A stretch of 64,000 nt of DNA from Synechococcus sp. GTDB taxonomy: Bacteria > Cyanobacteriota > Cyanobacteriia > PCC-6307 > Cyanobiaceae. This document shows positions 30,928 through 44,545 of this stretch, piece by piece. The position numbers and the translations under genes are program-made. The stretch spans positions 2,304,136-2,368,135 of the forward strand of contig JBJBDC010000001.1 of the NCBI GenBank assembly GCA_047285535.1, given 5' to 3'. How positions within the stretch are numbered: the stretch's first letter is position 1; the number at the start of each line of letters is the position of its first letter. Below the pieces are notes generated by a model. The model did no database searches. It worked only from the letters and a program-made list of their open reading frames with translations, and had not been told where the DNA came from.

Positions 30928-32070
30928 TCAGTTGGCTCCCGTTGCGACCTTGACCGGCATGCCACTGCGCAGGCGACTTGTATTGCTCACTGCCACCTTG
31001 TCCCCAGTCTTGAGTCCCGAAATCACGGGATAGAGGTTGTTCTGTAATGGTCCAAGCTTGACTGGGGTTTGAAACACCATCGGAGTGTTCCCAGGAAGCT
31101 TTTCCAGTTTTTTCAACTCTTGATCCGTCGTATTGGGTGAGCTTTTGATCTTCGGCAGTGCCTTGCTGATGGGCACAACCCTGTAAACGAAAGGTTGTTG
31201 AGCTTGCATCATCACGGCCTGCACTGGTACAGCCAGACTTTGACTCGTTCCCGTGATGATCGTGGAGGCCACGTACTGGCCAGTTTTTAATTGTCCGGTG
31301 AGATTGGGGAATTCCGCCTTCACCGTCATTGTGTTGGGTGGGTTGCCGTTTTGGCTGAATGCGAAGTAAGGAGATATAAAGGTGATTTTCCCTTCACCTG
31401 TGATCTGGGGGGTGGATTGGGATGCAACTTTCACAGTTTGCCCCACTTTGACTTGGGAGGCTTGGGATGACGGAATGTCCATCAATGTCCAGAGCGTGGA
31501 GTTGTCCACGATCCCTGTGATGGCTTGTCCAGTTGTGACGTAGTCCCCGAGCTTTACGGTATCGAGATCCCCGACCACACCATCAATTGGAGAGCGTACA
31601 AATTTATAGTTAAGAGTGGCTTTGTCAGCAATGGCCTGATCCCGTGCTTTGATCGCCTTTGTGGCATAGAAATCACGATCCATGGCCGAGGCGGCGCCTT
31701 GTTCGTAAAGGTATTGAAAACGCTCCGCATTCACAAAGCTGTTTCGAGCTGCTGATTGTGAAGTATTGAGCTGAGCGCTATCTTGCGTGTTATCGAGAAC
31801 AAGAATCACTTGCCCTGCTTGTACTCGATCTCCCTCCCTAACAAGCTTTTTGATTACTCGTCCATCGGTCTCAGGGCTTAACACCACATTGGTGGTGGAC
31901 TCGAGCGGGCTAATGGCTCTGATGCTTGGCGCGAAGGTGCTTTCGGAGATTGTCGCGGTCTTGATGGATAAAAAGGTATGACCGGCCTTTTTGCTTTGAC
32001 CGCATGCTGCAAGCGCAGTCGAGACAATCAGCACGACCGCAAGGGAACCTCGCACAATCCAACCTTTCAC
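30928..32070 (-). CDS. RND periplasmic adaptor (MFP), lipoprotein
   Basis: Lipobox LAAC, V.EGDRVQAGQ and RSPIDGVVG lipoyl-like halves, GLKTGDKV. Confidence 0.92.
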   Translation of the reverse strand: MKGWIVRGSLAVVLIVSTALAACGQSKKAGHTFLSIKTATISESTFAPSIRAISPLESTTNVVLSPETDGRVIKKLVREGDRVQAGQVILVLDNTQDSAQLNTSQSAARNSFVNAERFQYLYEQGAASAMDRDFYATKAIKARDQAIADKATLNYKFVRSPIDGVVGDLDTVKLGDYVTTGQAITGIVDNSTLWTLMDIPSSQASQVKVGQTVKVASQSTPQITGEGKITFISPYFAFSQNGNPPNTMTVKAEFPNLTGQLKTGQYVASTIITGTSQSLAVPVQAVMMQAQQPFVYRVVPISKALPKIKSSPNTTDQELKKLEKLPGNTPMVFQTPVKLGPLQNNLYPVISGLKTGDKVAVSNTSRLRSGMPVKVATGAN

Positions 32071-32519
32071 TGGGCGGAGGTTACCTGCAATTCACGTTTG
32101 TTGGCGGCATGGATTGTGATTCAGTCATCAGGACGAGTGTTGATGATTTGCTGACCACAGTGTTCTGTCTGGACCGTGGGCCTCAAGCGCTGCCGTTAAG
32201 TCCTGAGATGCCGTTGCGTCGACACAAGCTGCCTGCAGTTATTCATGAGAGACAAAAGCTGTTCATTCAGGCCATTTTGTTTGTTTTTAGGGTAGAGAAC
32301 AGCGGCGAGTGAGATGAAACGTGGTGTCATCGGCAGGATGTCTTGGCGTTGTTGTGAATCCGAAAAGATGACAGCCAGCCAAAGTTCAGCTCAGTACAAG
32401 GCAAATGTCCAGGAGGTCGGCCAAAGATGGAAGGAGCCGATCATGTGCTGCGTGCATGGTTATGGCTAGTGTCTAAGGAAGGAAGGCCAACCGCAACGGC
32501 TCCTGGGCCAAGGGATTGT

Positions 32520-32572
32520 CTCCCCCCCCCCGCTCATCACGCTGAGGATGAAAATTGACGAGGGCGGGGAGG
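32520..32572. repeat. C10 homopolymer inside an imperfect GC-rich inverted repeat
   Basis: CTCCCCCCCCCCGCTCATCA ... TGACGAGGGCGGGGAG. Confidence 0.5.
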
Positions 32573-32660
32573 ATGGATGGCACGTCGCTACAAATCGGGA
32601 ATGGCTTCTATCCCATGAAAGAAGTTTGATCTCTGGGGCTCAAGTCTTCAGGGAAATCTG

Positions 32661-32801
32661 ATGCTCATGTCGCGTTTCACGTATGAGAGTTTTCAAATGT
32701 TGTTTGAAATCTGGATGCTGCTCGCATTGGCCTTTGGATTGAAAGCTTGCAGTAGCGTTCTTGTGCGGTTGGATGAATACTTGCCTGCGTGGATCTTTTG
32801 A
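32661..32801 (+). CDS. Possible 46-aa single-TM small protein
   Basis: MLMSRFTYESFQMLFEIWMLLALAFGLKACSSVLVRLDEYLPAWIF*; below the ORF-track length cutoff. Confidence 0.4.
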   Translation: MLMSRFTYESFQMLFEIWMLLALAFGLKACSSVLVRLDEYLPAWIF

Positions 32802-33009
32802 GCGTGAATTCATTGATTTGATGGTTGTGATGAGCCGATCCTCTCTGGTTGTTGCTAAAGCATGACTAATTGTGGATTCAGCGTTTGTGAATTTGTGCCT
32901 GTCTTTGTCTTTGTCTTTGGATGATTGATGTTAGTGGCTCTTGGGATTCGATCTCTTTGCGTGGGTATGCGGTGATTGAGCGGAAGTGGCTTTTGATTTC
33001 GGTCGCATT

Positions 33010-33137
33010 GGATACCAAATTACTTGAAAAGATTTTGCTTAATAGATTAGTTCAAATGATTTTTACTTCTTATAAAGTTTAGTGTGACCTTTTAATTGAC
33101 GGCTTGTTTGGCCATCTCTCGGTGAAATTCAAAAACT
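33010..33137 (+). promoter_or_regulatory. AT-rich putative promoter region of the arginase-urea channel operon
   Basis: Markedly AT-rich stretch containing TTGAAA and TATAAA hexamers just upstream of the ATG at 33138; exact -35/-10 pairing not resolved. Confidence 0.4.
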
Positions 33138-34646
33138 ATGGCTTCGATCCGTTTTGGCGAAGAGCTATCCAATCTGTTTGCGCTGATTGATGCTGACGGA
33201 GATGGGGTGATTACCACAGCCGAGGTGGAGCAGTTGCTGACCTCCATGGATGTAATCGTTGACCCTTCTGAAGCCAGTGCCTTGCGTGAACTCATCGCCA
33301 CAAAGGGGTCTTTGAATCGCGCTGACTTTTTGTTTTGGGCTAATCAGCAACCAGAGTTGGGGACCCATCAACTGCTCAGGGATCTGTTTGCGTTGATTGA
33401 TACCGATAGGAATGGCTGGCTGAGTCAGGAAGAACTTTCTGTGCTGGTTGCGCTTTTGCTTACGCCTGAGGCGCATTTGACCCCCGAGTTTTTGCTGGAG
33501 CGGCTTGATCGTGATGGGAATGGGCAGATCACAACGGATGAATTTCTGGCTTTATTTGAGGAGGAGAGCCTGTTGTCGTTATCTCTGGCTGACCTCAAGC
33601 GCCTGAAGAAAAATTTGGTACAGATCACCAGCACGTCCCGTTTGGCTGGGGTGAGCCTGGTGGAGGTGGATTGTGATCTGGGAGCCGGGATCCCGGGAGC
33701 AGGGGCTGGGATCGAATTGCTGAAGACTGCCATGCAGCGCCAGAAAGATCTGCAGCGGATGAGTGAATCTCTGATTGCTGAGATTCATGCTCAGCAGAGT
33801 CCTATTGCTCGAGCGACCGCCGCTGGCAGTCACAGTCAGACCCCGCATGCTCGCCACATCGAAACCATTGCTGGAGTGATGCGCAAGGCTTCCCAACTTG
33901 TGGCCAGCACCCTCGAGCAGGGACGTTTCCCTCTAGTGCTGGCAGGTGACCACTCCACGGCTGCTTCCACGATCGCTGGCATCCGTCGTGCTTATCCGCA
34001 GCAGCGACTGGGGGTGGTTTGGATCGATGCCCATGCTGATCTCCATTCACCCTTCACGACACCGTCGGGCAACATGCACGGCATGCCTTTGGCAATAGCC
34101 ACTGGGCTCGACAACTTGCCCGAGTCGATCAATGTCCCCGACGCTCGCACCCAAGAGCTTTGGAGGGAATTAAAGCAGTTGCACGGATCAGAATCGGCCG
34201 CGATCGCATTGCGGGATTTGATTTATGTCGCTGTACGCGACACCGAGGCCGCTGAGGATGCAGCGATCATTGCGCATTCAATTCCTGTAATCAGCACCGA
34301 GCAGCTGCGACAAGAAGGGGCCTTGCAGGTTGCCAATCGCTGCCTAGCCCACCTTGCGGAGGTGGATCTTATTTATGTGAGCTTCGATGTGGATGCCCTT
34401 GATTCAACGATCTGTAAGGGAACAGGAACTCCGGTGCCTGGGGGGCTCTGGGCCCATGAAGCTGCTTCACTCTTGCGCACTCTGCTGTCCGACCCACGGA
34501 TTTGTTGTTGGGAAATCTGCGAAATTAATCCTCATCTTGATGAGCTGAACACCCTGGCGGAGGTTTCGCTGGGGATCTTCCGGGCCGGACTGGAGGTGCT
34601 CTCGGAGCGGTTCACTCCCATCACCGTTGCCTCCTATGCCGATTGA
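33138..34646 (+). CDS. Arginase fused to an N-terminal calmodulin-like EF-hand domain
   Basis: EF loops DADGDGVITTAE, DTDRNGWLSQEE, DRDGNGQITTDE; ureohydrolase Mn ligands GDHS, DAHAD, SFDVD; arginase-type SGNMHG; TGTPVPGG; EINP. Confidence 0.92.
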   Translation: MASIRFGEELSNLFALIDADGDGVITTAEVEQLLTSMDVIVDPSEASALRELIATKGSLNRADFLFWANQQPELGTHQLLRDLFALIDTDRNGWLSQEELSVLVALLLTPEAHLTPEFLLERLDRDGNGQITTDEFLALFEEESLLSLSLADLKRLKKNLVQITSTSRLAGVSLVEVDCDLGAGIPGAGAGIELLKTAMQRQKDLQRMSESLIAEIHAQQSPIARATAAGSHSQTPHARHIETIAGVMRKASQLVASTLEQGRFPLVLAGDHSTAASTIAGIRRAYPQQRLGVVWIDAHADLHSPFTTPSGNMHGMPLAIATGLDNLPESINVPDARTQELWRELKQLHGSESAAIALRDLIYVAVRDTEAAEDAAIIAHSIPVISTEQLRQEGALQVANRCLAHLAEVDLIYVSFDVDALDSTICKGTGTPVPGGLWAHEAASLLRTLLSDPRICCWEICEINPHLDELNTLAEVSLGIFRAGLEVLSERFTPITVASYAD

Positions 34647-36240
34647 TGACCATTCCCTGTTTGAGCTTTTACAGGTCTTGTTGCCGCCACCTCCCCCGGT
34701 TCGCAGAGCTGTAAGGGGTGGGGTTTTTAGCAACCGCTTTTCGTTGAGCCCTTGGCTCAGCTGGTTGCGTAGCTTTTCGCAGGTGATCTTCATCAACAAT
34801 CCGCTGAGTGGAGCCCTGCTGCTACTGGCTTTTCTGCTGGGTTCCCCCTGGATGGCTCTTTTGGCTGTGGTTGGCATGGCTGCGGCCAATCTCACCTCAA
34901 GCCTGCTTGGTTTAGCAAGGAATCTGCGTGACCAGGGCATTCATGGTTTCAACGGTGTTCTGGTGGGTTGTGCTGGGGCATCTCTCGTGAATCTCGGAGC
35001 CGTTCAAAGTGTTGGTCTTTTGGTGATCTTGGTGGGAGTCGGGGGCGGTTTCACCACGGTGCTTGTCGAAGTCTGGAGCCGCTTCTTTCATCGCCGCGGA
35101 GATCCACCGGTGCTCACGTTGCCGTTCTGTTTGGTCACCTGGTGCCTTTTGATTCTTGTCCTTCCTTCATCTTCAGATCCGATTGAGTCCCTGCAGTTCT
35201 CTGCAGCAGGAGGTTTGCTGCAGGCGTTGCTGCTCGGCCTGCCTCAAAGCTTTGGTCAAGTGTTTCTCTGCTCAGGCTTGGCGAGCGGATTCCTGGTGCT
35301 CCTGGCTGTCGCCTTGGCCAGTCCTATGGCTGCGGCTCTCGGCGCGGCTGGGGCGATGGTGGGGATGATGACCGCTCTGATTCTTTCCCAAGGCGCTGAT
35401 CATGCGGCCGTGGCTCAGGGGCTCTGGGGCTACAACGGTCTTCTGGTGGCGATCGCTCTTGGCGGGATCTTCCATGCTCCCGGAGTGAAAAGCCTGCTGA
35501 TGGGTCTGGCTGGGGCATGTCTTGCCACTCTGCTTCAATCCCTTCAGGTCTCGCTGATGAGCAGCCTGCCTCCTTTGACCTTCAGCTTCGTGCTGACGAC
35601 CTGGCTGCTGCAGCGCTTTGCCAGCCAGACGTTGCCGGCTCTGATTCCGGTCTCCTTGCATGCGGTGGTTACGCCTGAGGAACATCGCAAGCGGTTTGTT
35701 GTCGCCAGGGAGCTGCTTGGCAGTTTCCGTCGCAACCTGCGGCAGCGGATTAATGGAACAGTGCAAACCCCTGGCCTGGCTCCGTTGGCGCCGGCGCTGC
35801 AGACTCAGGCGCAACGTTTGTTCCAGTTGATCGACCGCGATTGCGATGGCAGCCTCAGCTTGGACGAGTTGCGTGAGGCGTTGCTGCCGTCTCGATCCAG
35901 GGATGAGGCCTCAGAGCAAAGCCTGTCCTTTCTGGATTCTCAGCTGACAGCAACGATGGCTGCGATGGATCTCGATGGAGATGGACGGATCGACTTCGCT
36001 GAATTCAGCCAGCTGATCCAGCGATTGCAGCGGCTCCGTGAGGGGGAGGAACGGCTCCTTCTGTACCTCTTGCCCGTCGATGTCAATGGTGACGATCGCC
36101 TCGATCGGGATGAATTGGCCCGATTGCTGCAAAGCCTTGGTCAAACGCCGCTCACGGCGACCGAACAGTCACTGGTTTTCGCTGATCAGGAGTTGGGTCT
36201 GCGCTGGCGCGATTTTGTGGATCGCCTGCTGTTGATTTGA
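34636..36240 (+). CDS. UT-family urea transporter fused to a C-terminal EF-hand domain
   Basis: UT repeat motifs SFSQVIFINNPLSG / GIHGFNG / LTLPF and SFGQVFL / GLWGYNG / LTFSF, then TPEEH; EF loops DRDCDGSLSLDE, DLDGDGRIDFAE, DVNGDDRLDRDE; overlaps the arginase stop. Confidence 0.9.
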   Translation: MPIDDHSLFELLQVLLPPPPPVRRAVRGGVFSNRFSLSPWLSWLRSFSQVIFINNPLSGALLLLAFLLGSPWMALLAVVGMAAANLTSSLLGLARNLRDQGIHGFNGVLVGCAGASLVNLGAVQSVGLLVILVGVGGGFTTVLVEVWSRFFHRRGDPPVLTLPFCLVTWCLLILVLPSSSDPIESLQFSAAGGLLQALLLGLPQSFGQVFLCSGLASGFLVLLAVALASPMAAALGAAGAMVGMMTALILSQGADHAAVAQGLWGYNGLLVAIALGGIFHAPGVKSLLMGLAGACLATLLQSLQVSLMSSLPPLTFSFVLTTWLLQRFASQTLPALIPVSLHAVVTPEEHRKRFVVARELLGSFRRNLRQRINGTVQTPGLAPLAPALQTQAQRLFQLIDRDCDGSLSLDELREALLPSRSRDEASEQSLSFLDSQLTATMAAMDLDGDGRIDFAEFSQLIQRLQRLREGEERLLLYLLPVDVNGDDRLDRDELARLLQSLGQTPLTATEQSLVFADQELGLRWRDFVDRLLLI

Positions 36241-37577
36241 GCTTGCAAAGCACGATCGCTCTCCGCCTTAGAGAGTTCAAGGTCACAGCCAACCGGTTGG
36301 ATCAAGTGCTCGAGTGCGTCGGCGGTTTGAGACAGGCCCTTCTCTTCTTGGATGAGTTTCTGCAACTGGAGAGCACGCTGTTTGAAGCTTGGGGTAACGG
36401 CGAGGCTCTGCAAGCTTTTTCTGAGCCCATCGGTGGTCACTGTTTTTGCTGTGTAAGTGGCTGGACTGACTCCCAAGCGCTCAAGGGTGCGTCCCCAGGC
36501 CGGCTGATCAGCGAAGAAGGCCACCACGATGCTGGGAATGCCACTGATCAGTGTGCTGGCTGTTGTGCCTGCACCGCCGTGGTGGATGGCACCTTGCAGT
36601 TGAGGGAAGAGCCACTGATGGGGACAGTGTTCGAGTACGAACACTGACTCAGGCAATCGACCTTTTGGCAGCAGATGCCCCCATCCCGGCGAGAGGATCA
36701 GTCGTTGATTGGCTTGGCATGCCGCGGTGACGATGATCTCGGCAAGCTGTTCTGGATCTCTGGGGATCATGCTTCCAAAGCCGGCATAAAACGGGGCTGG
36801 CCCTTCCTGCAGAAAATGCTTGAGGTCCTCAGGGGGCTCGTAAGGGTGATCGGCCTCCTTTGTGGAAAGGCAGAACCCTGTCACTTTTGCTTGAGAAGGC
36901 CAGTCCGCCGGCTTTGGGATTAAGTGTTTGCTGAAGAGATGCAGCACCGTTGGGGATTGCAGAAACGGAGGGGTGTCTTGTCTGGCTGATGCTCCGTTCC
37001 AGGGCAGTTGGGGTAGTCCTTGCTGACGTCGAAACGCTTGAATCACGTTGCTTTCTTGTCGCCATTTGAGAAGGCGAATCGCTTCATAACTGAGTTGGTT
37101 GAGTTTTCCTCGGATGCGGTTGCGAGGTCCGCTCCCATTGGAAGACCCATCTCCTGGCCAGCTCAGGAAGGAGAAGTTTGTTGTGCTGAGCAACGGAATC
37201 GGGCTGACCACCGCGAACCTGCAGCCCTCAGCTTCAGCAAGGTGATATCCCCATAGAGCCAACGGCGGAGTGAGTAGCAGGTCGCAGCCATCGATTGCTT
37301 TGCGGGCAGTTTCGATCCATTCATGAAGCAAGTTGTTATTGATTAAACGAATGGCTTTGCCCTCCATTAACTGGACGCCGTCTTCTGAAGCCATGAGCTC
37401 TCTGAAGTCTCCCGCAAGAGAGGTGAAACGCACCCCCTCGTCTTGCACAGCCTCTTGAAAATTGGCGCTGCCAATGAGATGCACATCATGACCGCGCTTC
37501 TTGAGTTCCTTAAGAAGAACCAAATAGGGCTCGAGATCACCGCGTGAGCCGACGCTGATTAGATGGATGGATGCCAT
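36186..37577 (-). CDS. GT1/GT28-type glycosyltransferase (sterol/glycolipid glucosyltransferase-like)
   Basis: GSRGDLEPY, GFGSM, HHGGAGTT, FFADQPAWG. Confidence 0.9.
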   Translation of the reverse strand: MASIHLISVGSRGDLEPYLVLLKELKKRGHDVHLIGSANFQEAVQDEGVRFTSLAGDFRELMASEDGVQLMEGKAIRLINNNLLHEWIETARKAIDGCDLLLTPPLALWGYHLAEAEGCRFAVVSPIPLLSTTNFSFLSWPGDGSSNGSGPRNRIRGKLNQLSYEAIRLLKWRQESNVIQAFRRQQGLPQLPWNGASARQDTPPFLQSPTVLHLFSKHLIPKPADWPSQAKVTGFCLSTKEADHPYEPPEDLKHFLQEGPAPFYAGFGSMIPRDPEQLAEIIVTAACQANQRLILSPGWGHLLPKGRLPESVFVLEHCPHQWLFPQLQGAIHHGGAGTTASTLISGIPSIVVAFFADQPAWGRTLERLGVSPATYTAKTVTTDGLRKSLQSLAVTPSFKQRALQLQKLIQEEKGLSQTADALEHLIQPVGCDLELSKAESDRALQAQINSRRSTKSRQRRPNS

Positions 37578-37662
37578 AGACGGCGGCTTTTTAATAACAA
37601 CTATTTTCTGCAGATCGCTTGCAGCGCGTGCGCTCTCTCGCTTAGAAATCGATGAGAAAGCA

Positions 37663-38868
37663 ATGTGTTGGTTCCTGCCCCCTCCGATCCGATTTGTGGC
37701 CTGCAATCTGGTTAAGGATCTTCTCGATTGGTGGGAGATTCATGGTCGTAGGGATCCAGCGCAAAAGCCTTGGATGTTTACTCCTGAAGGGAAATGGCCT
37801 CAGCGCTGCGAGCACTTGAATCCCTATCCGATTCACGTGGCCGAGGTGATGCTGCAGCAAACACAGCTGCAGGTGGTGCTGCCGTATTGGCAGCGCTGGA
37901 TGGAGTTCTTCCCAGCTCTTGAGGCGTTAGCTGAGGCGGAGGCGCAGACAGTGTTGCTGTGTTGGCAGGGTCTCGGCTACTACTCCCGGGCTCGCCGTTT
38001 GCATGACTCGGCCCGGCAGCTGCTGAAGCGAATAGGCTCCAATGCCTCTCATGATCCACAGTGTTGGTCAAGGGATCTGGAGGCGTGGCTGGAATTGCCG
38101 GGGATCGGCCGCAGTACGGCTGGCGGCATTCTTTCCTCTTCTTTTAATAGCCCAGTGGCGATCCTGGATGGCAACGTGCGCCGGGTGTTGGCGCGGTTGC
38201 AGGCTCATTCGCTTCCGCCGATGCGGGCGCAATCTCTGTTCTGGAGATGGAGCCAAGCTTTAATCGATGCTGCTCCATCGCGGGCCAGAGATCTCAATCA
38301 GGCTCTGATGGATCTTGGTGCCACGGTTTGTACCCCCCGTTCACCACAATGCTGCTCCTGTCCCTGGCAGGATCATTGCGCTGCGTACGCTGCTGGCGAT
38401 GTGGAGCGCTTCCCCGTGAAAGAGACCCCGAAAGCTGTGCCCTTTCAGGTGATAGGTGTGGGTGTGGTGCTGAATGATGCCGGTGAGGTGTTGATTGATC
38501 AACGCCTGAATGAGGGGCTGCTTGGTGGATTGTGGGAGTTCCCCGGCGGTAAGCAGGAGCCTGGCGAGGCCATCGTTGCCACGATCTCGCGCGAATTGCA
38601 GGAAGAGTTGGGCATTGAGGTGGCTGTGGGAGAGGAGTTGATCAGCCTCGAGCACGCTTACAGCCATAAAAAGCTGCGATTTGTTGTGCATCTCTGCGAG
38701 TGGCGTTCTGGAAACCCACAGCCTCTGGCGAGCCAGCAGGTGCTCTGGGTAAGCCCGAATGAACTGCGGAATTACCCTTTTCCCGCAGCCAATGCACGGA
38801 TCATCGAGGCCTTGGTTGGCAGGTTGGATCCTTCTGGTCAGCCTGAAGCAAGTTGCAATGAGGACTGA
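37663..38868 (+). CDS. mutY: A/G-specific adenine glycosylase MutY with C-terminal Nudix (MutT) domain; start uncertain
   Basis: EVMLQQT, GLGYYSRAR, LPGIG HhH, DGNVRRV, 4Fe-4S C-x6-C-x2-C-x5-C, Nudix box GKQEPGEAIVATISRELQEELGI. Confidence 0.93.
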   Translation: MCWFLPPPIRFVACNLVKDLLDWWEIHGRRDPAQKPWMFTPEGKWPQRCEHLNPYPIHVAEVMLQQTQLQVVLPYWQRWMEFFPALEALAEAEAQTVLLCWQGLGYYSRARRLHDSARQLLKRIGSNASHDPQCWSRDLEAWLELPGIGRSTAGGILSSSFNSPVAILDGNVRRVLARLQAHSLPPMRAQSLFWRWSQALIDAAPSRARDLNQALMDLGATVCTPRSPQCCSCPWQDHCAAYAAGDVERFPVKETPKAVPFQVIGVGVVLNDAGEVLIDQRLNEGLLGGLWEFPGGKQEPGEAIVATISRELQEELGIEVAVGEELISLEHAYSHKKLRFVVHLCEWRSGNPQPLASQQVLWVSPNELRNYPFPAANARIIEALVGRLDPSGQPEASCNED

Positions 38869-41376: not shown

Positions 41377-42729
41377 CTACACAAGTCCCCCCACGATCGG
41401 CCACCAGCAACTATCAATCACTTGCTGCTCTGCTGACTTGGTCTCCGCGTTGCGGATTTCAGCAGCAAGACTATCCAGAAGAGATCCATGCAACAGCGGG
41501 CCCATGGCCTCATGCAGTACAGAATCGCGCTCGAACGCCATCCGGGCTTCAACAAGGCTGGCCGGAAGCTTGGGGATGTTGTGATCGCTCAGCAGAGCGG
41601 GATCACCCGTTTGCTCCGGTGGAAGTGTGCGTTGATCACGCAGGGCGTCAAGCACCTGAGCTTGAAGTGCACCCAACAGCAAGTAGGGATTTGCAGTGGG
41701 ATCGACTGCTTTGATTTCCAGGTGAGCGGCACTCTGATCGATTGCGGTGGGAATTAAGCGAACGGCTGCCTCACGGTTCTCCATGCCCCAGACCTGGAAA
41801 GGGGCGGACCAGCTGCTGGGCACCAGCCGTAGGTAAGACACAGGAGAAGGGCTGGCCAGCGCCACCAGAGCAGGGAGTTGCTCAAGCATCCCGGCAATCA
41901 GGGCTTCTCCTTCAGGACGCAGCCCATAGGGACCTGGCCCGTCTTGGAGCAGGGGGCCTTGAGCATCCCGAAGGCTGAAGTGCAGGTGGCCGCCATTCCC
42001 GATCCAGTCCAGTCGGGGTTTGGCACTAAAGCTGCTGTACCAGCCAAAGCGGCGCGTCACGCGTTGGATCACCAGACGGGCTCGTATCAGCTGATCCGCC
42101 ACCTGGAGTGGGGCTTCGGCTGCGAAGGACAGTTCGAACTGCGAGGGGCCATATTCGGGATGAAACTGGATCCAGTCCACCTCTGCGGTATCGAGTGCCT
42201 CGAGAAGTGCCGAGGCGTAATCGAGGCCCTCGATCAAACGGTCGGCTCCGTAAGGTCCCCCAGAGATCATCGCCTTTGGGGAGCCGTTTCTGTCAGGGCT
42301 TACGACAACCCATTCCAGTTCAAATCCGGCGGTAAGGGACAGTCCAGCTGCATCGAGTTTCTCCTCCATGCGGCGGCAGAAGTGGCGTTGATCTGCGCCG
42401 TAGGGTCCGCTCGTACGAGTCCAGCGTTCGCCCGCGGCCCAGGCCCAGCCCTGATTGGGCTCCAGCATTGCCAGCGATTTAGGGTCTGCCTTGAGGCGCA
42501 GATCGCCATCCGGTCGTGTGAGGCGATGCGTTGGTTCGATGATCCCGTCCGAACGGAAGGCATCGGATATGGGCGAGAAGCCGACTCCGATGTCGACGGC
42601 GAGTTGCCAACGACGCAAAGGCACAACCTTGACGAGCGACTCGCCCGCGTGGTTGTCCCAGGTGATGGCGATCTGACGCACACCTTTGGCGGTCAACGCT
42701 TCGAGGGACTGGTCATACTCCGTGGTCAT
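41377..42729 (-). CDS. Glutamine synthetase-like protein (GlnA3/FluG-type gamma-glutamyl-amine ligase candidate)
   Basis: GFELEW, HPEYGPSQFE, GNGGHLHFSL, SYLRL, NREAAVR, LEIKAVDPTANPYL. Confidence 0.88.
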   Translation of the reverse strand: MTTEYDQSLEALTAKGVRQIAITWDNHAGESLVKVVPLRRWQLAVDIGVGFSPISDAFRSDGIIEPTHRLTRPDGDLRLKADPKSLAMLEPNQGWAWAAGERWTRTSGPYGADQRHFCRRMEEKLDAAGLSLTAGFELEWVVVSPDRNGSPKAMISGGPYGADRLIEGLDYASALLEALDTAEVDWIQFHPEYGPSQFELSFAAEAPLQVADQLIRARLVIQRVTRRFGWYSSFSAKPRLDWIGNGGHLHFSLRDAQGPLLQDGPGPYGLRPEGEALIAGMLEQLPALVALASPSPVSYLRLVPSSWSAPFQVWGMENREAAVRLIPTAIDQSAAHLEIKAVDPTANPYLLLGALQAQVLDALRDQRTLPPEQTGDPALLSDHNIPKLPASLVEARMAFERDSVLHEAMGPLLHGSLLDSLAAEIRNAETKSAEQQVIDSCWWPIVGGLV

Positions 42730-42905: not shown

Positions 42906-43091
42906 ATGTCTGAAGTTCCAAGAGGTCTGCTATGGCTGGCCGTGCCCGCTGCGGTTGTTTTGGCCTTAGTGGTGCATGGTCAGGCTGAATCGGCCCTGCC
43001 TTTTTGGGCTGGCATGCCTGTTTGGGTGTTGATGTTCATCGCCCTGCAGGCGGCACTCACCCTTGTTGCTGCTTGGATCGCCCGCCCATGA
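42906..43091 (+). CDS. Small 2-TM symporter accessory protein (DUF3311/DUF997-like)
   Basis: 61 aa, two hydrophobic helices flanking AGMPVW; ATGA overlap with the SSS gene. Confidence 0.6.
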   Translation: MSEVPRGLLWLAVPAAVVLALVVHGQAESALPFWAGMPVWVLMFIALQAALTLVAAWIARP

Positions 43092-44545
43092 GCATCACCT
43101 TGATCTCCGCGCTCCTTGCGCTGGTGGCTTATCTCCTGGCGTTGCTCTGGCTTGGTGCTCAGAGTCTCGGGGGTCAAACCAACAGCGCCGACTCCTATTT
43201 TCTGGCCGATCGGCGACTGCGTGCCGGTGTGCTGTTTTTCACGCTGATCGCCACTAATTTCAGCGCTTTCTTTTTTCTTGGCTTTGCCGGCGCGGGATAT
43301 CGAATCGGGATTGCGTACTACCCAATGATGGCGTTCGGAACAGGATTAGCAGCCTTCAGCTTCGGCAGCCTCGGCTGCCGGGTGCGCAAACTCAGCGCTC
43401 AACATGGCCTGATCACCCCGTCCGAATTGATCGGTCATTTCTTGCCTGGGGAAGGCCTGCGCCTCTTGGTGCTTGCGGTGATGGTGCTGTTCACCCTTCC
43501 CTATTTAGCTCTGCAACCTTTGGGTGCCGGTTACTTGTTGGAGAGCCTTACGGGAGGTGCGGTTCCTTTTGGCGTTGGAGCAACCCTGCTCACGGTCGTG
43601 ATTGTGCTCTATGTCGTAGGCGGCGGCATGCGAGCTGTGGCACGGACCGACGTGCTTCAGGGGGTCTTGATGTTCCTGCTGATGCTGATGGCCTTTGGGG
43701 CTGTAGCCAAAGGTGTCGGTGGCGTCGAGATGGCGAATCGTACGCTGTTCCAACAACGTCCAGACCTCTTCAGTACGGCTGGTCTTGGCGGGTTCTTTAC
43801 GCCGCGAATGATGGCGAGCTATTTGCTGCTCTGGCCTTTGTGTCTGCCGATGTTTCCGCAGATGCTGATGCGTTTCTTTGCCGCCGGGGATGACCGTTCG
43901 CTGAAGCAATCCATGGTGCTGTACCCAGTGGTGGCGGGGGTGTTGTTTATCTGCCCGGTCATGATCGGGATGTGGGGGCATCTGGCCTTCCCCGATCTGG
44001 TGGGTCGCGCCTCAGATCAGATCCTGCCGTTGATGCTTGGACGCTACAGCCCTGAGTGGTTAACGGGAATCGTGATGGTGGGGGCCTTGGCTGCGTTTAT
44101 GTCAACCCTGGACTCGCAGTTGTTGGCGCTGTCTTCGATGCTGACTCGCGACCTCTACACAAGATATTGGCGCCCGCAAGCTTCCTTGCCAGAGCAAGTG
44201 CGTGTCGGGCAGTTCGTGGTGATCGCCCTTGCGGTTGCTGGGCTGGTCATCGCCCTTCGGCCTCCGGATGCGATTCTTTCGCTTGCAACCCATGCGTTCT
44301 CCGGTTTGGCCTTGCTGTTCCCGATGCTGGTGGGGGCGGTCTATGGCCTGCGTTGGTCTGTCCTTGGGGCGATGTTGTCGGTGATCGGCGGCGAAGCCGT
44401 CCTGCTGGGTTTTGCAACGGGTGTGATTCCAGAGGGGTTCCAGGTTGGCTGTCTACCTTTGATTCCGGCACTGGTGGTGGCCTGCTCGATTTTGGTTGTG
44501 GATCAGCTCATTGATCGCTGGTCTTCGTCTTGCTTGCAGGCCTGA
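43088..44545 (+). CDS. Sodium:solute symporter (SSS) family permease
   Basis: YFLADR, ATNFSAFFFLG, GGMRAVARTDVLQG, AAFMSTLDSQLL; many hydrophobic segments. Confidence 0.93.
   Translation: MSITLISALLALVAYLLALLWLGAQSLGGQTNSADSYFLADRRLRAGVLFFTLIATNFSAFFFLGFAGAGYRIGIAYYPMMAFGTGLAAFSFGSLGCRVRKLSAQHGLITPSELIGHFLPGEGLRLLVLAVMVLFTLPYLALQPLGAGYLLESLTGGAVPFGVGATLLTVVIVLYVVGGGMRAVARTDVLQGVLMFLLMLMAFGAVAKGVGGVEMANRTLFQQRPDLFSTAGLGGFFTPRMMASYLLLWPLCLPMFPQMLMRFFAAGDDRSLKQSMVLYPVVAGVLFICPVMIGMWGHLAFPDLVGRASDQILPLMLGRYSPEWLTGIVMVGALAAFMSTLDSQLLALSSMLTRDLYTRYWRPQASLPEQVRVGQFVVIALAVAGLVIALRPPDAILSLATHAFSGLALLFPMLVGAVYGLRWSVLGAMLSVIGGEAVLLGFATGVIPEGFQVGCLPLIPALVVACSILVVDQLIDRWSSSCLQA

Follow-up and report, generated by a model that had tools for sequence, protein, structure and literature searches.

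Can cytosolic Ca2+ control both the production of urea and its passage through a membrane channel in a bacterium? The question is raised by two adjoining genes of Synechococcus sp. (family Cyanobiaceae), which lie in a stretch of 64,000 nucleotides, referred to here as the window (GenBank assembly GCA_047285535.1, contig JBJBDC010000001.1, positions 2,304,136 to 2,368,135 of the forward strand). The second gene encodes a predicted urea channel of the UT family whose C-terminus carries a calmodulin-like EF-hand domain, and the first encodes an arginase-family enzyme with an EF-hand domain at its N-terminus. Here we report that the channel represents an uncharacterised, widely distributed UT subfamily with a putative fused Ca2+ sensor, encoded in a conserved operon with the candidate Ca2+-sensor arginase. 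We propose that cytosolic Ca2+ sets the rate of arginine conversion to urea as well as the urea permeability of the membrane, and that urease then uses the urea; we rate the probability of this reading at roughly 0.55. From the sequences we infer Ca2+ binding by both sensors, a cytosolic signal common to them and gating of the channel; the sign of that gating and the direction of urea flux are proposed.

An earlier note on this DNA had described a calcium-sensor urea channel. Its combination of a UT with a fused calmodulin-like domain stands, but the EF-hand arginase directly upstream had been overlooked. The idea of channel gating is plausible and the earlier interpretation was incomplete: with the arginase included, the issue is no longer a gated pore but urea production and urea passage coordinated by Ca2+.

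Marine picocyanobacteria rely on urea as a major source of nitrogen, and we know of very few effectors of bacterial Ca2+ signalling. The operon offers two candidate Ca2+ effectors with an obvious biochemical read-out, urea flux and arginase activity. If the proposal is true, a cytosolic Ca2+ transient in a marine picocyanobacterium has a hard-wired output, namely urea release together with the opening or closing of a urea pore. Whether Ca2+ is a picocyanobacterial second messenger and whether a UT channel can be gated become testable with ordinary assays, which could also settle the Ca2+ control of nitrogen handling in these cells; a gated UT, if confirmed, would give the mammalian SLC14 channels a useful counterpart to be compared with. 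A 2026 paper on how marine Synechococcus takes up urea names, in its available text, urtABCDE and DUR3 and mentions no channel (PMC13505874).

The predicted urea channel and its calmodulin-like tail

The channel gene and its parts are arranged in the window as follows.

34636..36240 (+): UT urea channel gene with a C-terminal EF-hand tail, 534 amino acids, second gene of the two-gene unit
34636..34749 (+): N-terminal extension, predicted to be cytoplasmic, with a short helix (residues 8-14), PPPPP (residues 17-21) and an arginine-rich stretch
34762..35670 (+): UT channel domain with both repeats, from Pfam UT and Foldseek matches to solved UTs
35671..35754 (+): TPEEH (residues 346-350, 35671-35685), continuing into a basic amphipathic helix (residues 347-373)
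35833-35868, 35968-36003 and 36079-36114 (+): three canonical EF loops of the tail, starting at D400, D445 and D482
36184..36219 (+): fourth EF loop, degenerate and lacking Ca2+ ligands, which pairs with EF3

Residues are counted from the ATG at 34636, where the 534-residue database form of the protein begins (P0003, 100% identical); a TTG at 34627 is an alternative start of the same open reading frame (ORF). The match to Pfam UT (PF03253; E 1.9e-63, 214.8 bits against a cut-off of 25) spans profile positions 4-287 of 292, therefore both UT repeats are present. The AlphaFold2 model of the channel (mean per-residue confidence, pLDDT, 79; predicted template-modelling score, pTM, 0.76) contains the UT helices, the long helix 347-373 and four helix-loop-helix units. 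Its membrane part was matched by Foldseek to 8blo, 8xd7, 9j22, 3k3g and 4ezc (E 1.8e-14 to 1.4e-13; template-modelling score, by target, 0.75-0.84), a set comprising human UT-A and UT-B, bovine UT-B and the Desulfovibrio channel. The earlier description of a UT with both repeats is borne out by the profile and by these fold matches.

Conservation was evaluated in an alignment of 30 homologues that are 44-82% identical to the query. T161 and T315, one in each UT repeat, which we take to be the pore-lining threonines, are kept in 30 of 30; T161 aligns with the threonine in the TLPF block of human UT-A, with which the channel shares its signature blocks. The N-terminal extension, where the proline run noticed earlier is indeed found, has an invariant L16 and a leucine at position 12 in 27 of the 30, and the model reaches a pLDDT of 71 at residues 11-20, with lower values to either side. 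At the end of the membrane domain TPEEH is invariant, with P347, E348, E349, H350 and R353 present in 30/30 homologues. The basic stretch RKRFVVARELLGSFRRNLRQRI follows it inside the model helix 347-373. Residues 351-372, likened earlier to a calmodulin-target helix, are predicted to be helical and are moderately amphipathic (hydrophobic moment 0.4-0.5, net charge +4/+5). The TPEEH motif and basic linker recognised earlier are both present in the sequence.

The three EF loops begin exactly where they had been placed before. In each of them position 1 is D, position 12 is E and position 3 is D or N in all 30 homologues, and position 5 is D or N with one S. The conservation of the three loops and of TPEEH is far beyond chance. 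In the fourth loop, which had rightly been called degenerate, no acidic ligands are conserved, and W524 and D529 are each found in 30/30. The tail matches EF-hand_7 (E 9.2e-18, 64.8 bits, cut-off 30), and EF-hand_1, _5, _6 and _8 also score above their cut-offs. Searched with the full model, Foldseek matched the tail to calmodulin-like domains, the first EF-hand entry being the calmodulin-like domain of a calcium-dependent protein kinase (CDPK). Folded alone, the tail (mean pLDDT 71) was matched to many EF-hand pairs at Z 9-11, among them KChIP2, CHP2 and CIB2, which are regulators on channels or transporters; these matches are generic to EF-hands, and no specific regulator stood out in the search with the tail alone.

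Both ends of the channel, and hence the EF tail, are predicted to be cytoplasmic by the positive-inside rule and helix parity. The termini of mammalian UTs are intracellular, in agreement with this placement. Solved UTs have 10 transmembrane helices plus two pore helices and are trimers, according to the available text of PMC10541013, and a UT fold with 10 transmembrane helices puts both termini on one side of the membrane. Lysine and arginine residues number 4 in the N-terminal loop 15-38, 2 each in loops 95-100 and 151-160, and 8 in the C-terminal helix 347-373; the central loop 176-193 has none, and two acidic residues. A periplasmic tail is rejected on this distribution together with helix parity, which supports the cytoplasmic C-terminus that the earlier idea of gating had called for.

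An arginase with EF-hands upstream of the channel

The arginase gene lies directly upstream of the channel gene and ends 11 nucleotides past the channel ATG.

33138..34646 (+): arginase-family enzyme with an N-terminal EF-hand domain, 502 amino acids, first gene of the operon
33189..33542 (+): EF loops of its N-terminal domain, D18-E29 (33189-33224), D88-E99 (33399-33434) and D124-E135 (33507-33542)
33582..33623 (+): conserved basic linker helix SLADLKRLKKNLVQ, leading from the EF domain to the catalytic domain
33651..34550 (+): catalytic domain (Pfam residues 172-471)
34636..34646 (+): 11-nucleotide overlap of the two genes, from the channel ATG through the arginase stop codon (34644-34646)

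Arginase converts arginine to ornithine and urea. Residues 172-471 of the protein match Pfam Arginase (PF00491; E 2.2e-49, 168.9 bits, cut-off 22), and its closest solved relatives are true arginases, from Thermus (2eiv, E 9.6e-40) and Bacillus caldovelox (1cev). In 32 homologues the blocks GDHSTAA, WIDAHAD..H.SP..T.PSGN.HGMP, DVD..D and CCWE.CEINP are invariant, and these catalytic blocks align with the same blocks of 2eiv. Models of other ureohydrolases score far lower (agmatinase 61.7-64.5 bits, hutG 76.8 bits), arginase being the best by far.

EF-hand families of Pfam cover residues 9-140, which form an N-terminal domain of four EF-hands. Across the 32 homologues D22, G23, E29, D88 and D124 are invariant in this domain, and D18, D90, G93, E99 and E135 are conserved in at least 90%. 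The linker SLADLKRLKK is nearly invariant (S149, L150, A151, L153, L156, K157 and K158 at 90% or above, L160 without exception), with a hydrophobic moment of 0.36-0.41 and a net charge of +3 to +5. A length of ~500 amino acids and both domains are conserved in this family, hereafter EF-arginase. Arginase and channel thus follow one plan, in which a conserved basic helix stands between the working domain and a calmodulin-like domain. Their EF domains resemble each other only generically (best BLASTP E 4e-4 over 37 residues), and we therefore reject the idea that both proteins recently received copies of a single EF domain. A complex predicted from the channel tail (residues 343-534) and the arginase N-domain (residues 1-172) scored 0.00, which is no answer and counts as evidence neither way.

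The host genome (3.03 Mb, one contig) has a single UT, and its EF-hand_7 matches above the Pfam cut-off are three, all of them within the arginase and channel genes, whose products are thus the only clear EF-hand proteins encoded there. It also encodes urease (ureC), the UrtA binding protein of the urea ABC transporter and a second arginase-family gene elsewhere.

Distribution of the two genes within the family

We surveyed 401 genomes of the taxonomic family of the window, its own genome included. A UT domain was found in 45 of them. The open frames of the intact UTs are all 538 residues or longer, so that none of them lacks the tail; the other copies are fragments, frameshifted copies or pieces at contig ends. 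EF-arginase, searched for with E up to 1e-60, is present in 24 of the 401 genomes, and in 22 of these it lies within 300 nucleotides upstream of the channel on the same strand. In a further genome the arginase is truncated and 2.1 kb from the channel, with a transposase-like ORF between them. The last copy (G342:C1:2368738-2369759) carries two TGA stops and is a pseudogene split into two pieces; its genome has no UT match. The arginase thus accompanies a tail-bearing UT in 23 of its 24 occurrences, the pseudogene being the exception. One in-frame stop was seen in five of the arginase matches of the family.

An intact channel stands beside a decayed arginase or its remnant at loci L006 (genome G277), L015 (G260) and L029 (G118), which favours a stand-alone use of the channel such as uptake. 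The decay is repeated: short remnants adjoin the intact channel in L006 and L029, and L015 has an insertion with a DUF772 transposase-like ORF. The urease gene ureC is encoded in 43 of the 45 UT-bearing genomes, and the two others are 73% and 87% complete.

Within one genus (L021, L022, L024, L026 and L028) a FUR-family regulator gene immediately precedes the arginase-less channel gene on the same strand. At three loci (G064:C32:1852-2772, G199:C12:102273-103208 and L065:3057-3983) the arginase match is limited to the catalytic part (query residues from ~170); here the EF domain of the arginase may be missing or diverged, and the channel retains its tail.

Distribution in other bacterial lineages

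To find wider relatives, the protein was scored against 1.84 billion representatives, among which full-length tail-bearing relatives reach down to 32-38% identity. The members with names are a Myxococcales metagenome-assembled genome (MAG), an MMETSP transcript and Rhodelphis, and long proteins of eukaryotic type, with a UT and EF-hands or a UT and ankyrin repeats, were matched as well. When 120 UT domains were placed in a tree, the 20 with a full tail all grouped in a single clade (SH-aLRT 99), which has 22 rows and is completed by two truncated proteins; the EF-bearing UTs of eukaryotic type form a separate clade. The deep nodes of the tree are unresolved, so the UT/EF-hand fusion could have one or two origins. 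The tail-bearing channels are a separate subfamily, in one clade and apart from the Yut equivalog.

Tail-bearing channels were identified in the cyanobacterial groups Leptolyngbyaceae, Microcoleus, Pseudanabaenales, Chroococcidiopsis, Pleurocapsa, Xenococcaceae, Prochlorotrichaceae, Crinalium and Moorena, and elsewhere in Enhygromyxa, a Myxococcales MAG, Burkholderiaceae MAGs and a Candidatus Sulfopaludibacter. The UT/EF-hand fusion is a widespread subfamily and not a one-off. Its presence in non-marine cyanobacteria and other phyla weakens the earlier argument that a pore open at all times would leak nitrogen in a nutrient-poor sea. In several cyanobacterial orders and three other phyla the channels keep the linker, all three loops and the W..D.LLL motif at the C-terminal end.

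For the linkage of the two genes across phyla we scanned one genome per species with a four-sequence alignment as query, which gave 69 loci, 29 of the tail type and 40 tail-less. The tail is reached in 26 of the 29 tail-type loci, and three are cut short. An arginase match lies directly upstream on the same strand at 21 of the 29; 14 of these arginases are full length including the EF part, four are partial (three cut by the contig start, one with the catalytic part only) and three are no more than short stretches (two of them remnants, the third at a contig start). Six tail-type loci have no arginase match and two could not be judged. Beside the 40 tail-less UTs of the same scan there was no arginase match at all. 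The gap between the two genes ranges from a 1-nucleotide overlap up to 6 nucleotides in five of the scanned loci and is 29-35 nucleotides in two more. The pair recurs in other cyanobacterial orders, Myxococcota, Burkholderiaceae and Acidobacteriota, and this linkage across phyla indicates that the two genes are a cassette that has moved between them.

At two arginase-less loci the place just upstream of the channel, on the same strand, is taken by a metallophosphoesterase/5'-nucleotidase-like enzyme that has EF-hands at its C-terminus and no obvious signal peptide (L048:1169-2854, Enhygromyxa salina; L051:2192-3889, Leptolyngbya cf. ectocarpi). EF-hand enzymes that replace arginase beside the channel hint at a wider bacterial design of an EF-hand enzyme plus an EF-hand channel. 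Near the cassette in L059 there are a NOX5-like protein with EF-hands and ferric reductase, FAD and NAD domains, and a bestrophin-type channel (L059:2-1894 and L059:8437-9366). EamA transporters flank the cassette in L038 (on both sides), L059 and L061, MscS-like channels occur in L038 and L052, and SpoIIE phosphatases with HAMP/CHASE3/Cache sensors are found in the flanks of L052 and L054-L056. In other cyanobacteria the flanks of the cassette may be Ca2+ or osmotic-stress islands.

Comparison with known systems

With dvUT (3k3f/3k3g), bovine and human UT-B and human UT-A, the channel shares family and fold at 27-30% identity. It differs from the solved UTs in ~190 extra residues, predicted to be cytoplasmic, after the shared C-terminal end. 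No EF-hand domain is present on any solved UT among the matches, consistent with the earlier statement that characterised UTs lack a fused Ca2+ sensor. Regulation of mammalian UT-A1 works through phosphorylation and trafficking; it is not known to involve a fused sensor.

Among Ca2+-regulated mitochondrial carriers with fused EF-hand domains, the ATP-Mg/Pi carrier has Ca2+-bound lobes that capture an amphipathic helix, the mechanism we propose for the channel. The carrier (4zcu) is likewise a transporter fused to a four-EF-hand calmodulin-like domain, and the tail matches it at Z 8.9 over 124 residues, a score in a list where generic EF-hand pairs reach 9-11. The carrier differs in its unrelated membrane domain and in the N-terminal position of the regulatory domain, and homology is limited to the EF-hand fold; the likeness would be a mechanistic one only. 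In CDPKs, too, the EF-hand domain sequesters an adjacent amphipathic helix. The CDPK activation domain (3khe; Foldseek rank 20, tail alone Z 9.8 over 147 residues) has the same order of a helix followed by four EF-hands, but there the regulated part is a kinase, and the root-mean-square deviation of ~10 Å over a long alignment means that the arrangement of the lobes differs or is poorly modelled.

Helicobacter UreI is a proton-gated urea channel that works with the arginase RocF and urease. It is similar as a ligand-gated bacterial urea channel in a cell with arginase and urease, a likeness by description only, and dissimilar in that it belongs to the AmiS/UreI family, is gated by periplasmic protons and has no fused sensor.

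EF-hand modules C-terminal to UT in "protists and bacteria" have been described in "Urea transporter evolution" (Biol Direct 2026, PMC12998343), whose Table S3 has UT+EF-hand architectures in Bacillati and Stramenopiles and which suggests Ca2+ regulation; the fusion as such is therefore not new. In its available text that paper takes a census of domains, with a model of one example, and describes neither the operon nor the conserved linker, topology and single-clade origin; "arginase" and "cyanobacteri" are absent from its main text. No report of the EF-hand arginase or its cassette with the channel, nor of the linkers, topology or single clade, was found in the searchable literature, which leaves most subscription journals outside, and the arginase/channel cassette appears to be unreported.

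Proposed mechanism

The product of the second gene would be an inner-membrane urea channel of the UT (SLC14) family with a cytoplasmic calmodulin-like tail in which three Ca2+ sites look functional. On binding Ca2+, the EF lobes would grip the basic helix where it emerges from the final transmembrane segment, or possibly helix 8-14 near the N-terminus, which is also conserved. The captured helix or the whole tail would shift relative to the cytoplasmic mouth of the pore, changing access to it. This sequence of events is modelled on EF-hand regulatory domains that sequester an adjacent amphipathic helix.

We favour a scheme in which Ca2+ would switch on both entry through the channel and release from arginine, giving urease two sources of urea, because the channel survives without the arginase and the hosts have urease. 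A more ambitious claim is that the operon is a self-contained Ca2+-switched nitrogen module, with the first ligand-gated UT/SLC14 channel and the first Ca2+-regulated arginase; we advance it tentatively, at clearly less than even odds.

Several observations weigh against a Ca2+-controlled urea pathway made of these two proteins. About half of the UT-bearing genomes of the family have no arginase, so the pairing is not obligatory for the channel, and at the eight loci L021-L028 the upstream gene codes instead for a FUR-family regulator (in five of them), for RecR or for a transglutaminase-like protein. Both proteins score below the cut-off of the respective NCBIfam equivalog, the arginase with 191.9 bits against rocF (TIGR01229, cut-off 227.6) and the channel with 144.2 bits against Yut (TIGR03441, cut-off 274.6), so that substrate identity is assigned by family and not by equivalog. 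The hydrophobic moment of the channel linker is unremarkable, and would also fit a helix on the membrane surface; the confidence of the tail in the full model is moderate (pLDDT ~60-87). Signals that would tie the operon to nitrogen control were not found either: the NtcA-type site GTA-N8-TAC occurs 0 times in the whole window (1.16 expected), and there is no Rfam element at 31900-33300 with E up to 1.

Alternative explanations

The strongest alternative, which we consider unlikely, reverses the roles: Ca2+ would trigger a pathway from arginine to ornithine, and the channel would serve the arginase as the exit for by-product urea. It draws support from the fact that the arginase never occurs without the channel, save for the pseudogene noted above, from its absence beside all 40 tail-less UTs, and from the order of arginase then channel, with overlapping or nearly abutting ORFs, which holds across phyla. 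Against it, urease, encoded in at least 43 of the 45 UT-bearing genomes, would consume the urea internally, loss or decay of the arginase leaves the channel intact, and the export of nitrogen would seem costly for these organisms.

The EF tail could also be a docking or assembly module that tethers the arginase or another EF-hand enzyme, or that stabilises the oligomer, around a pore that is constitutively open. Arginases are trimers or hexamers, which would suit such an assembly, as would the trimeric state of UTs (available text of PMC10541013). Both proteins carry EF domains and would be co-translated, and the Enhygromyxa and Leptolyngbya loci without arginase have another EF-hand enzyme just upstream of the channel. 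We regard docking as improbable, since the two EF domains are only generically similar and the conserved canonical Ca2+ ligands of the tail point to sensing over plain scaffolding.

A tail that binds Ca2+ or another divalent ion for structural reasons only, or that is a neutral appendage of an ordinary ungated bacterial UT, is a little more improbable still. Many bacterial EF-hand motifs are structural, which speaks for it. It fits poorly with the conservation of the linker, the three loops and the W..D.LLL end across phyla down to ~32-38% identity, with the retention of the tail by every intact UT in the family, and with the parallel EF domain and basic linker on the partner enzyme.

That the pore carries a solute other than, or besides, urea, such as ammonia, water or a small amide, is very improbable given the full UT profile, the signature blocks in common with human UT-A, the invariance of both presumed pore threonines and a partner enzyme that makes urea, even though the channel is below the Yut cut-off and mammalian UTs also pass water and UT-B passes NH3 (available text of PMC12171576).

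Genomic surroundings and regulatory signals

The region upstream of the operon (32071-33137) is a stretch of ~1.07 kb without a convincing ORF, between the arginase gene and a divergent gene for an RND-efflux adaptor (30928-32070, -), and its G+C content is ~50%, against 55-59% elsewhere. No sigma-70-like promoter was found within 32000-36700, and terminator-like sites in the same interval are at chance level (5 found, 5.9 expected). No RNA sequencing runs are listed for the locus; a single run of unspecified kind contains 0.29 of its words.

A glutamine-synthetase-fold gene (41377-42729, -) is located ~5 kb downstream, with gamma-glutamylputrescine synthetase as its best NCBIfam model, below cut-off. 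Divergent from it is a sodium:solute symporter gene (43004-44545, +), whose best NCBIfam models are panF and PutP, again below cut-off; it was considered as a DUR3 urea transporter and is not recognisable as one. The glutamine-synthetase-fold gene and the symporter could be related to polyamine or ornithine metabolism. On the opposite strand, an ORF for a GT28/UDPGT-type glycosyltransferase (36186-37706, -) converges on the channel gene and overlaps its final 55 nucleotides (36186-36240).

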